DNA of 64,000 nt, taken from Octopus vulgaris. Its lineage: Eukaryota. A program made the translations under genes and the position numbers. The notes beneath the pieces were generated by a model, which was not told the origin of the DNA, ran no database searches, and was given only the letters and a program-made list of their open reading frames with translations. The stretch is taken from positions 51,894,001 through 51,958,000 of the forward strand of contig OX597826.1 in assembly GCA_951406725.2 (NCBI GenBank). The letters run 5' to 3'. This document shows, piece after piece, positions 2,721-58,557 of this stretch (positions are counted from its first letter, which is position 1; each line of letters begins with the position of its first letter).

Positions 2721-2763
2721 CTAACACTGAAGAAGGAAACTATCAGAAACGTCAGGGTTGTAG
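2721..2763 (+). ncRNA. Degenerate minimal hammerhead ribozyme motif
   Basis: ctgaaga-aggaaactatca-gaaa-cg-tc. Core boxes present, stems I and II eroded. Confidence 0.4.
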
Positions 2764-4124
2764 ATTGCTCATACTGTCAACTGTTCGAAATAAGGAATAT
2801 CTAATAGACGCAATCAACAATACGTCTCACTGGACTCTACTTCATCGTACACACTCCCCCCACCACACACATATATATATACATATTAGTGTATGTGTGC
2901 GTGAGTGGGTGTGTATGTCTAAGAGATAATCAAAAGATTAAGAACAAGCAAAATATACATAAAATATAGTGTATTAATTCTGCGAAGCCTCATGCATATA
3001 TTCACAAACGCACACACGCACATACACACACACACACATACATGCGTGAATGTGTGTGTTTGTGTGTGTGTGTGTATGAATGTATATGTTTGTATATAGG
3101 CATACACACACATCTATATTATATATATATATATTTGTGTGTATATATACACACATATACACAAAGTAATAAAATGCACATGAATATACATATATTTGTT
3201 CATGCAAACATTTCCATTAGCAAACATGTAGACTGGCGTGTTGCTTTCGTTTATATCTCTATAAAAATCTAAAATGTCTCGAAAGACATTAAAGATTTGT
3301 TTATTTAACAATGCAATAAGCTACAAAGAGATGATTTCTCTGTAAAATTCCATGACAATGTTAATAAAGTAAACATACTGTTTATTAATGCTGACAATGA
3401 ATTCTACAAGCAAAATTTTCAATAAAATATATGATATATGATTCAATATGGATTATATTGAATTCTCAACAATTGGGCGGTGAGTGTAAACGGAATACAT
3501 CAGTCTGTCAATGGGTAAGATTACATCTATCTTCTATTTCCAGCAGGCTGTAACACTACTTCAAGACCCAGGTAGACCCTTGCGCGCACTGATTGAGCAT
3601 TTGGGCGTATGATCACAGACTTAACTCCATTGTTTCATGTGGTCTTTCTTTTTAAAACGGTAGGGTGTAATTGGCGGTGAAGCTGAGGTAGGCGAGCGGG
3701 TATATGTGCGTGTGAATATGAATACGTATGAGTGTGTGGGCTTGTGTCTGCTAGACTATATATGAGTGTATATGTTCATCAGCATGTAACATCTGTGATA
3801 CCAATCTGAGGCTAACTTTCTCATTATTTTTTTTTTTGTTTTAGTTTATAATTGTCTCCCAGACTTACCTTATTAACCTACATTAAAAAACCACCCCTTC
3901 TCCTAACCCTATCTCCACCTTTAGCCAGTCTGTGTCCCTTCCAAATCTGGCTCATCAATCCAAACTCTCTCCATACCTCAGAGCACTCGGTTGTCAAATC
4001 TAATTTTACTCCTTCATATTGTAATTCTAACGATGTTTTATCGTCATAATTAACTTTAATTGCTTATCTGTTATATTTTATAGCTGCATTATCATGTATA
4101 CATATGAATGTGACAAAATGTTAG

Positions 4125-4610
4125 CCACCTGGAAAGTGCATGTACTCTGATATGAATCCAGTACAACATGTTGCCGGCAACTATACTGGTAGCCCCACCA
4201 TGCTATCATGGTGAGGAGGGTTGCTAGAAACCCAGCAGGATTAAAAACAAGACGTGTTGAAAGGTCGGATGAAACTAGTGCAGGCTCAACGGCTATCTAG
4301 CTATAACATGGGTACGCAGAAATTCCGGGATGGTGCCCGGCATGCTGAAGAACCAATGTTGAAGCATGTCTCTAGCAGATATGCAAGGAATGTCATTGGA
4401 CATTCTGAAGATCTTTGGTTTGTGCTAGAGATCAAGGCGCTCCCACATCCCTGAGCATGTGACTCATATTGGCACCAGACATCTTGCTCCGGCTTGTCTC
4501 TGGATAATGTCAATAAACTAGAGAGTGTCTATGAGGTGTCGTGCAAGCCTTATTGGACCTAAAACACTACACAGGCATTGCTGACCTCTGCCCAGTATGT
4601 GCTTTCACCC
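4125..4610 (+). mobile_element. Probable non-LTR retrotransposon 5'-UTR fragment
   Basis: GC-richer island ending at a (TA)n tract. General resemblance to RTE-type 5' regions, with no diagnostic protein motif. Confidence 0.3.
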
Positions 4611-4719
4611 CTATATATATATATATATATATATATATATGTGTGTGTGTGTGTGTGTATATATATTATTTTTAGTATATACGTATCTTTATTTTTAGTA
4701 TATATATATAATTTTATTC

Positions 4720-56430: not shown

Positions 56431-57989
56431 ATATATATATACATACATACATACATACGATCTCTGTGTATGTATGCGTACGAACGTCTTTCCTTGTGTG
56501 AATATGCATGCATCTATGTGTATGTTGAAATGAAATGAATAATAGCTTCCATAACTAACGTTTGAAACGTATATCTGAAGCAAACATCAATTAATATATT
56601 ATTGGCATATAATAAAAAAAAAGTATTATGACGTTCGAAGAAAATATCATCTTTAGAATTTCTATTTCTTGTTTTAATAATAACCTTTCTGATTGCTTCC
56701 TTTTTTACTTTACTGAAGTTCATTTCTCTAATATTTATATCAATGCCCAGTTCGCATTTCAAAATAATATTTATTTGCAAGTTATATTCTGAAAAATTAT
56801 CTTTATATTTATAGAAATAACTTAAGCAAATGAATGATGGAAATGGTATTGAATTAAAGATGTAGAAGCGCGCCTGGAAATAGTCATAAATGAGAGTTTC
56901 TGAAGAATACGTTTTATTAGGAGTTATATATAACATATGCACATTCATACACAAGAACACAGAGACGCATAGAAATATACACATCTGTATATGTATATAT
57001 GTATATATGCGTGTGTGTGTGTGTGTGTGTGTGTGCGTGTGTGTGTGTATCTGTGTGTATACAAACACGTAATATACATGCAGGCATACATACATGCATA
57101 CATACGCACACACACACATATATATATGCATGTATGCATATATACATATATATGGGTATATATGTATATATATATATATATATATGGGTATATATGTGTA
57201 TATATATATATGTATGTAAACGTATATGTATGTGTATATATATATATATATATATATATATATATATATATACACATATATGCATATACATGCATCTGTA
57301 TGTACGCACAGAGACTCAGACACAGACACAAACACACACACACACACACACTCACAGACACACACACACACACACACACACACACACACTCACACGGGAG
57401 GAATTCAGAGAGGCCAGTGTCATAATTTCGAACATGAAATACAAATTAAGCTATATTGAATGGCGTACTTGATAAATTATTGATTTATTGCGATTATTAT
57501 CGCTTCGAGAAAGGGTAAACAAAAAACCTCGGAGGCAATTTGCATCAAACTACGAAGGAGAAGGCAAGACTATCTCAAGAATCAAGAATTCTTCGCAATT
57601 GATACGTAAAGACATTCTCAGTTGTTTTCGGGGACCGGGGGGTCTGATCAACAGGCGACAACAATACAACAGTTTTTGCAACATGAATCATATCTTTCTC
57701 TCTCTCTCTCTCTCTCTCTCTCTCTCTCTCTCTCTCTCTCTCTCTCTCTCTCTCTCTCTCACTCACTCCCTCTAAATAATATATACTGCATAGCATTTGG
57801 AAATAACTTAAGATATCCACATTCAAATAATATATATATATAAATATATACATTTATATATATATATATATATATATAACTAAAGTCAAAACAAGGGTGA
57901 AAAATTGGATATTAATTTAATAACACCAATTTAAAACACCAAGTGGCCTAGCGTATAAAAGACTGAGATTCAGTAAATATTATTAATAC

Positions 57990-58420
57990 ACAACTATAAG
58001 AGAGAATCCACTATGTGGACGCTCTTACGCTAGATATAGATCCGCAAATGGAATCCACCACCAAGAATTTTTCTCAAGTAATAATTCAACACACCAAGAA
58101 CGTAAGCGAGCAGGACAAATGAAAAGCAACGAAAATATAGATTAACCCTATACAATTGTTCTCAGTTGTTTTCGGGGACTAGTGGTCCTGATTAACAGGC
58201 GACAACAATACAACAGTTTTTGCAACATGAATCATATCTTTCTCTCTCTCTCTCTCAATTAACGATGAAACAATTAATCTATACTTTTCATCTGTCCTTC
58301 CCGCTTACGTTCTTGGTGTGATGAATTATTTCTTGAGAAAAATTCTTGGTGGTGGATTCCCTTTGCGGATCTATATCTAGCGTAAGAGCGTCCACATAGT
58401 GGATTCTCTCTTATAGTTGT
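57990..58420. repeat. ~137-bp inverted repeat (57990-58126 / 58284-58420) within a TA-flanked element
   Basis: acaactataagagagaatccactatgtggacgctcttacgctagatatagatccgcaaa... and its reverse complement, with few mismatches. The right arm abuts (TA)n. Confidence 0.95.
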
Positions 58421-58522
58421 TTATATATATATATATATATATATATATATATATACCTCGTGTGTACCGTTGGCGATTTCTTTTCCTCTGTCTTCCCTTC
58501 TCTGGATCTTACCTTTTCCTAT

Positions 58523-58557
58523 GTTTCCGACGAAGAGCTCCGCTCGAAACGTTAAAC
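58523..58557 (+). ncRNA. Minimal hammerhead ribozyme motif (U4C variant)
   Basis: gttt-CCGACGA-a-gagc tcc gctc-GAAA-cg-TT-aaac, with palindromic AACGTT stem III. Lies in a ~200-bp element bounded by (TA)n on both sides. Confidence 0.65.

Follow-up and report, generated by a model that had tools for sequence, protein, structure and literature searches.

Hammerhead ribozyme motifs within an octopus GRIN3A-like gene appear to lie in truncated Penelope-like elements and in non-coding retrozyme-like units

Several hammerhead ribozyme motifs lie in introns of a GRIN3A-like N-methyl-D-aspartate (NMDA) receptor gene of Octopus vulgaris, within a 64,000-nucleotide stretch of contig OX597826.1 (positions 51,894,001 to 51,958,000, forward strand) that we refer to as the window. 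The supported motifs belong to seven repeat families. With high confidence, we assign four of them (C, D, E and H) to the 5'-truncated ends of coding Penelope-like elements (PLEs) and three (A, B and G) to non-coding tandem units known as non-LTR (long terminal repeat) retrozymes, likely inserted by a PLE reverse transcriptase (RT)-endonuclease (EN). A first-pass annotation, made from the letters of the window alone, had listed about eight hammerhead cores in several families and had taken them all for non-autonomous, ribozyme-processed retroelements targeting TA microsatellites.

Results

Hammerhead motifs in the window exceed the chance level

The window was scanned for type I motifs with a relaxed descriptor, which asks for a C-Y-G-A-N-G-A core, a helix II of 4 bp or longer, GAAA, a paired helix III and UH. 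It tolerates one unpaired base at either end of helix II, following the PLE motifs described in PMC4209133. Six matches were found, with cores at 23139+, 33725−, 39517+, 40069−, 41861− and 58527+, compared to a mean of 0.31 and a maximum of 2 in 200 local dinucleotide shuffles of the window. When helix I of at least 4 bp was also required, four matches were left against 0.02 in the shuffles, and a strict canonical descriptor matched once, at 41861−. The bare core heptamer occurred 26 times in the window compared to 25.5 times after shuffling. This chance-level count indicates that the excess over shuffles stems from structure.

Two of the eight annotated cores escaped the descriptor. The motif at 11683+ lacks one A of GAAA, which is present in the family consensus over 20 loci. 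At 2727+, the core stands with a minimal helix III, helix II falls short of 3 bp, and a genome search with this motif gave one candidate, itself. Judged by the core, by helices I to III in type I order and by the comparison with chance, seven of the eight motifs are supported as hammerheads (six by the descriptor, 11683 through its family consensus), so that the annotated set appears mostly real; 2727+ is unconfirmed.

2718–2766, plus strand: single-copy hammerhead-like motif with weak helix II, unconfirmed (descriptor and single-copy search)

Repeat matches from our first query at 2721 came from a neighbouring 70-100 bp TA-flanked element and not from the motif. A high-copy element of this size at 2557–2630, between two (TA)n tracts and often beside another hammerhead family, is possibly a detached PLE tail.

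General searches contributed little. An Rfam scan of the window gave no hammerhead among the matches listed (150 of 343), which consisted of microsatellite-driven miRNA matches and one weak U4; the RF00163 genome search returned 6 matches from the 73 scored of ~263,000 candidates and was unusable for counting; and a general repeat search of the window was dominated by microsatellites.

The stems vary in sequence and keep pairing, as first annotated. In family A, a U-A pair of helix II is replaced by C-G in 4 of 34 matches. Among seven related short-helix motifs, both partners differ at 8 of 13 pairs (one such change being C3-G8 to U3-A8), with pairing in 94% of cells compared to 21-52% in slid controls, a covariation that is partly circular because these rows were picked by a pairing descriptor. 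Core departures recur across families: U-U at 10.1/11.1, C4, U6, GUU cleavage sites and an extra base before GAAA. A U at core position 6 also marks a common E-related family (L189 and other loci).

The motifs belong to dispersed, high-copy repeat families

All seven supported loci retrieved dispersed copies on many chromosomes. For each family, 40 candidates were scored and the best-scoring 20-30 loci were fetched. Identity to the window copy was 94-98% for family B and ~70-80% for family G. Exact-pattern searches counted 595 B-type and 4,978 E-type motifs (reversed controls, 0), in line with the high copy number first proposed, and a catalogue over all fetched loci held 194 motifs in 24 clusters plus 50 singletons.

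Families C, D, E and H are stubs of coding PLEs

39980–40190, minus strand: family D, 3' stub (pseudo-LTR, pLTR) of a Hydra-clade PLE, assigned from longer copies; the hammerhead at 40013-40075 has a C4 core, a GUU site and an extra base ahead of GAAA
11050–11765, plus strand: family H, 3' stub of a second Hydra-clade PLE, including a microsatellite-like 3' untranslated region (UTR), 5' boundary approximate; damaged hammerhead 11677-11738
33585–33834, minus strand: family C, hammerhead (33686-33731) with decayed helix I in the 3' stub of a PLE that encodes a CX2-5CxxC linker and a GIY-YIG domain; positions 33757-33834 form an inverted arm
58456–58654, plus strand: family E, 3' stub of a GIY-YIG PLE with a (TA)n tract on either side, assigned from longer copies; minimal hammerhead 58521-58559

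The window copies have no open reading frame (ORF), as annotated, and tblastn of the window with PLE proteins gave no match. The longer copies elsewhere run upstream into PLE coding sequence. In family D, both RT and EN stand upstream of the hammerhead-bearing 3' end, with a weak GIY-YIG Pfam match (E 0.013), and the Hydra-clade features RWK, DKT, a CxCX5C linker, CxxC, CxH and a (TA)n target are present, RWK and DKT being read by eye from the DNA of locus L240. For H, C and E, EN alone was seen upstream within the fetched DNA. Family H is related to D (EN identity 55-86%, pLTR identity ~70%), and two of its loci, L300 and L305, are continuous from the Hydra-type EN through the UTR to the motif; the microsatellite-like DNA 5' of the window copy is thus the 3' UTR of the H element itself. 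In family C, a CX2-5CxxC linker, which fits Neptune and Nematis alike, precedes a C-terminal GIY-YIG domain and both continue to the motif in L243; L244 is equal but split by an inversion. In family E, four of the 27 less-truncated loci (L309, L317, L321 and L324) have 0.8-1 kb of upstream sequence in common. L321 extends as far as the EN C-terminus; over 607 bp it matches L009, the locus that bears the GIY-YIG core, at 88% identity. The 64-aa (amino acid) L321 piece by itself gave no Pfam match. The putative PLE assignment of family E rests on this two-locus chain.

Copies of C, D, E and H are 5'-truncated and may bear an inverted 5' copy or an optional 3' tail. The inverted upstream copy was found in 8/25 loci of C, 8/25 of D, 4/20 of H and 1/30 of E, and the tails were seen in D and H. 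Tail, truncation and inverted 5' copy are among the PLE features described in PMC8557442. The inverted arms mentioned in the first-pass annotation thus occur both in the window and in the family loci. We considered a miniature inverted-repeat (MITE) or terminal-inverted-repeat (TIR) DNA transposon as their source and rejected it, as the arms vary in length and are missing from many copies.

These upstream sequences bear on the view that all seven families are non-autonomous. It is true of A, B and G, which are non-coding units, and no window copy of any family has a PLE ORF. For the other four families the longer copies tell against it, and for D and H several continuous copies contradict it outright, which makes it very improbable as an account of the whole set. 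The absence of ORFs is therefore a property of the window copies that does not extend to four of the seven families. The PLE link made in the first-pass annotation was correct.

Families A, B and G are non-coding tandem units

22900–23341, plus strand: family B retrozyme copy, a 352-nt non-coding unit at ~22972-23341 plus a 5' inverted block at 22900-22979, between two (TA)n tracts
23133–23177, plus strand: family B hammerhead with 6-bp helix I, palindromic helix III and U-U at 10.1/11.1 (descriptor and alignment)
41662–41975, minus strand: family A copy, 5'-truncated, from a non-coding head-to-tail unit of 500 nt; its inverted arm measures 45 bp
41804–41867, minus strand: family A canonical type I hammerhead, antisense to the host gene, the sole strict-descriptor match
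39495–39683, plus strand: family G, an old diverged piece of a ~340-nt non-coding unit, with its end at (TA)n; the hammerhead at 39511-39561 has a mutated G10.1

Each of these families consists of short non-coding tandem units with a type I hammerhead, of 352-353 nt in B, 500 nt in A and ~340 nt in G. Of 30 B loci, 22 have a direct copy upstream of the unit and 19 an inverted one. In a B sister subfamily, where the G10.1-C11.1 pair is canonical, 2-5 units are arrayed with a period of 353 nt (in the first 100 of the 595 matches). The family A unit is circularly permuted at 500 nt in several loci, and no contiguous PLE coding sequence was found upstream of it in 30 + 15 loci. The longest ORF is 56 aa in the B unit and 79 aa in the A unit; coding content in family G was judged by frame translation only. 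G, with its ~340-nt period, has a direct upstream copy in 6/24 loci and an inverted one in 10/24, and is the weakest of the retrozyme assignments.

The predicted circular folds of A and B had minimum free energy z-scores of -2.9 and -4.5, respectively, compared to 40 shuffles. Contigs of three presumed-RNA runs cover B with a 352-back junction, which genomic tandem copies share, so it is uninformative on RNA circles. A very young array came from an arbitrarily placed stretch (L249, 2098-4769, on C1 near 20.00 Mb). It comprises ~5 direct and 2 inverted 359-nt units that are 98-99% identical, related to B and equipped with canonical hammerheads, with TA at both outer ends. Its variants do not alternate regularly, and we therefore infer no dimer-circle template.

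Three further observations concern these units. PLE ORF pieces stand beside single A and B copies (L009 and L050), and we judged them neighbours or nested insertions. A second, weaker hammerhead-like motif lies ~170 nt 5' of the main one in the 500-nt A unit (L245:7520-7570 and other A loci). Another retrozyme family, of 362 nt with U3-A8 hammerheads, occurs as inverted and tandem copies (L256:8467-9672, L275:8161-8603) and is represented in the window by a pair absent from the first-pass annotation.

33095–33399, no strand assigned: inverted pair from the 362-nt retrozyme family with U3-A8 hammerheads, flanked by (TA)n tracts; the truncation extends past the ribozyme

Could A, B and G also be pLTRs of coding PLEs, whose full-length parents lie outside the fetched loci? 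The proposal in bioRxiv 10.64898/2026.07.22.740005 that retrozymes derive from pLTRs would fit this, as would the restriction of our sample to top-scoring loci and the rarity of a direct upstream copy in G. Yet the sequence upstream of the B unit is its own unit end in most loci, with arrays of up to 5, A is circularly permuted, and in the fetched loci no same-orientation PLE protein match lies contiguously upstream of A, B or G. We consider it unlikely that all seven families are pLTRs, and retain the division into PLE stubs and retrozyme-like units.

Both groups end at TA tracts with PLE insertion anatomy

The window holds 80 TA tracts of at least 12 nt. With tracts this common, nearness alone means little, and the TA association first annotated had to be examined at the family level. 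We scored (TA)4 near the 3' end of the family loci, excluding the window locus of each family and dropping loci without a 3' probe (1 A, 4 G). Within 15 nt it was present in 16/28 loci of A, 17/29 of B, 27/29 of E, 10/24 of D, 7/19 of H, 5/24 of C and 3/20 of G. Within 150 nt, a limit chosen to allow for the optional tail, the counts were A 24/28, B 26/29, E 28/29, D 22/24, H 15/19, C 12/24 and G 15/20. A control set of short interspersed elements (SINEs) gave 5/53 and 8/53, and the background was 5.6% and 17.5%, at the two limits. The association was significant for A, B, D, E and H at 15 nt (Fisher P <0.02) and for all seven families at 150 nt. In family E, TA also lay within 60 nt of the 5' side in 19/29 loci compared to 9% in the background, which fits insertion into a pre-existing tract. 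The PLE stubs and the retrozymes therefore show the same PLE insertion anatomy: (TA)n 3' ends, optional tail, 5' truncation and 5' inversion.

This anatomy argues against the idea that the retrozymes were moved by the enzymes of long interspersed elements (LINEs), or spread as satellites at the DNA level, and that the TA tracts grew later. LINE RT ORFs are abundant in the window, TA tracts are very common there, and PMC7229834 names LINEs or PLEs as candidate movers. Against it, the SINE control is not TA-flanked above background, and the dispersed retrozyme copies resemble the coding PLE stubs in their 5' inversions and optional tails. We regard this explanation as quite improbable compared to insertion by a PLE enzyme.

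Hammerhead load and PLE coding capacity of the genome

We estimated the load from forty arbitrarily placed 10-kb stretches (400 kb) of the 2.8-Gb genome. The relaxed descriptor gave 21 matches (14 loci with arrays merged) compared to 1.9 after shuffling; with helix I of at least 3 bp there were 13 matches (7 loci) compared to 0.13; and U3-A8 motifs numbered 6 compared to 0.33. Scaled to the genome, this corresponds to ~49,000 strict loci (95% confidence interval 20,000-101,000), 84,000 relaxed loci and 133,000 relaxed motifs, or one motif per 20-60 kb. The window, with 6 matches against 2.2-3.4 expected, has 2-3 times the sampled rate (P 0.03-0.12), so that the one element per 8 kb first inferred is a local high and overstates the rate of the system. 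Loads given in PMC7229834, obtained by methods that differ from ours, exceed 6,000 in coral, lie near 5,000 in mussel and go as high as 120,000 in axolotl.

The genome yielded 6,136 GIY-YIG candidates, and many of the 150 that were scored lay in open frames of 781 aa identical to each other. The full RT + GIY-YIG ORF of 781 aa, with a CxxC linker, is present in five fetched copies. This family ends at (TA)n, has a U3-A8 hammerhead-like motif and has no copy in the window. Its loci (L227-L231) further show a Neptune-type linker, an upstream ORF-like region and a 3' UTR of repeated motifs, and the family looks recently active. According to PMC13282606, the O. vulgaris repeat annotation has 31 recently active PLE families, and PMC8967140 describes Penelope as expanded in coleoids; in the available text, the former does not discuss ribozymes and the latter lacks the word 'ribozyme'.

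The host gene and further features of the window

1365–1649, plus strand: host GRIN3A-like NMDA-receptor exon, aa 234-328 (protein-to-genome mapping)
35708–36760, plus strand: host GRIN3A-like NMDA-receptor exon, aa 326-676 (mapping, protein entry and structure match)

The first-pass placement of the motifs inside a glutamate-receptor gene was correct. Protein-to-exon mapping puts the whole window inside a GRIN3A-like gene of ~800 kb (C13:51.39-52.19 Mb). An Octopus GRIN3A-like protein entry matches the large exon at 100% identity, and among solved structures GluN3A is nearest to it. With the exons mapped, all annotated motifs are intronic, five in sense and three in antisense orientation to the gene.

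The five sense motifs, and the number of window matches relative to the sampled rate, might suggest that the motifs are kept for cutting or regulating the NMDA-receptor pre-mRNA. We find this scarcely credible, because the sole canonical motif is antisense, and the sense copies are damaged or dimer-dependent monomers preserved no better than other copies of their families. The connection to the glutamate receptor is probably incidental, and the window copies are probably inert intron passengers, most with a predicted ribozyme that is damaged or dimer-dependent.

The three remnants that had been annotated near 8620, 58150 and 21210 each derive from repeat families. Their status as hammerheads differs: for 58150 the window holds only the 3' half of the motif, which copies elsewhere carry as a hammerhead, and 21210 has a non-canonical 5' core.

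8490–8632, minus strand: decayed family B relative with the hammerhead core deleted (77% over 83 nt, E 2e-11)
57974–58437, no strand assigned: inverted pair of 3' ends of a further hammerhead-bearing family (repeat-copy comparison)
21195–21315, plus strand: old repeat copy with a GAAA-palindrome-UA half (repeat family)

Broken LINE-type RT elements lie in the introns at 6481-8109 (+), 55063-56390 (−) and 62396-63102 (−). The SINE-like repeat of ~250 bp that served as the TA control occurs at 10616-10869, 42720-42967, 51100-51516 and 51785-52049, one copy having an internal 185-bp tandem duplication. The Rfam U4 snRNA match at 46397-46562 (+), with 41 bits against a gathering score of 46, is probably a pseudogene. 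Mariner-type transposase-like ORF fragments were recognised by eye at 44283-44603 and 45082-45402 (+), the first without a Pfam match.

Discussion

Published work on PLEs and retrozymes suggests the following course. Hammerheads in a tandem transcript would cleave it, often as dimers formed via the palindromic helix III (the dimer model is reviewed in PMC6765202), to yield unit-length and possibly circularised RNA. At a (TA)n tract nicked by the GIY-YIG domain, the PLE RT would copy the RNA from its 3' end by target-primed reverse transcription. Stubs of 200-700 bp would result where copying stops early, the inverted block would stem from a second priming event, and tails and tandem arrays would arise by run-on. 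From the insertion anatomy, we believe that A, B and G were likely inserted by this same RT-endonuclease machinery.

Several points weigh against this reading. C (P 0.27) and G (P 0.68) are not significantly TA-flanked at 15 nt. None of A, B, G and the L249 unit matched the 3' regions of the 30 GIY-YIG loci sampled (best E 0.006 for A, B and G, AT-rich), so that their PLE partner is deduced from anatomy. The family loci are the best-scoring of the scored candidates, not a random sample. The covariation of the short-helix motifs is in part circular. The core is non-canonical in several families (U-U at 10.1/11.1, GUU, C4), and minimal motifs of this kind are reported in PMC4209133 to have low activity in vitro.

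The octopus motifs resemble the minimal hammerheads of PLE pLTRs in PMC4209133: type I, with a palindromic helix III, the U3-A8 variant and many divergent families per genome. In both, some families have an additional base following A9, most motifs occur singly and stem from truncated PLEs, and pairs on opposite strands lie 100-700 bp apart. The octopus motifs differ in their cephalopod host, in that several octopus families lack G10.1-C11.1, which is highly conserved there, and in the extra base 3' of helix II and the GUU site of the octopus Hydra families. Families D and H share with the Hydra-clade PLEs of PMC8557442 the RWK, DKT, CxCX5C, CxxC and CxH motifs around EN, the C-terminal GIY-YIG domain, a hammerhead near the 3' end and (TA)n insertion; Mollusca are named in the text of that study but no octopus family is, and the octopus copies are frameshifted or truncated. 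Family C and the 781-aa family are like Neptune/Nematis-type PLEs in having CX2-5CxxC before GIY-YIG and ends at (TA)n. The likeness lies in the linker motifs, and the 781-aa family differs in its U3-A8 hammerhead. A, B and G resemble the non-LTR retrozymes of PMC7229834 and bioRxiv 10.64898/2026.07.22.740005 as non-coding tandem units with GC <50% and a type I hammerhead, present as monomers to short arrays, and the 352 nt of B match the 350-390 bp mussel repeats. In contrast, A (500 nt) exceeds the published 150-450 bp range, TA targeting, 5' inversions and tails are not described in the available text of these sources, and the octopus units are known from DNA.

Both PLE hammerheads and retrozymes have thus been published before; what is new here is the cephalopod host, the load and the insertion-site evidence for PLE mobilisation of retrozymes. 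Among the papers listed by a literature search, none was a study of octopus hammerheads, and the supplements of PMC8557442, PMC4209133 and PMC7229834 may list octopus families. There is, in our judgement, an even chance that hammerheads number ~100,000 in the octopus genome, spread over dozens of families and including recurrent core variants, which would rank with the densest loads on record, and that young 353-nt arrays with the full PLE signature stand beside intact TA-targeting PLE ORFs.

The enzyme that moves animal retrozymes and the role of the PLE hammerhead are open questions (PMC7229834, PMC8557442). In the sources consulted, support for PLEs as the movers consists of co-occurrence and pLTR similarity; bioRxiv 10.64898/2026.07.22.740005 uses co-occurrence and trees of Xenopus pLTRs to argue that animal retrozymes originated from PLEs, and reports cleavage for only 1 of 9 tested dimers. 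The target, tail and 5' inversion that octopus retrozymes share with coding PLE stubs provide independent evidence for movement by PLEs. Because near-identical young retrozyme arrays coexist with intact PLE ORFs, a direct test is practical. If our interpretation is true, the octopus would be a ready system in which to test PLE mobilisation of retrozyme circles and the role of the PLE hammerhead.

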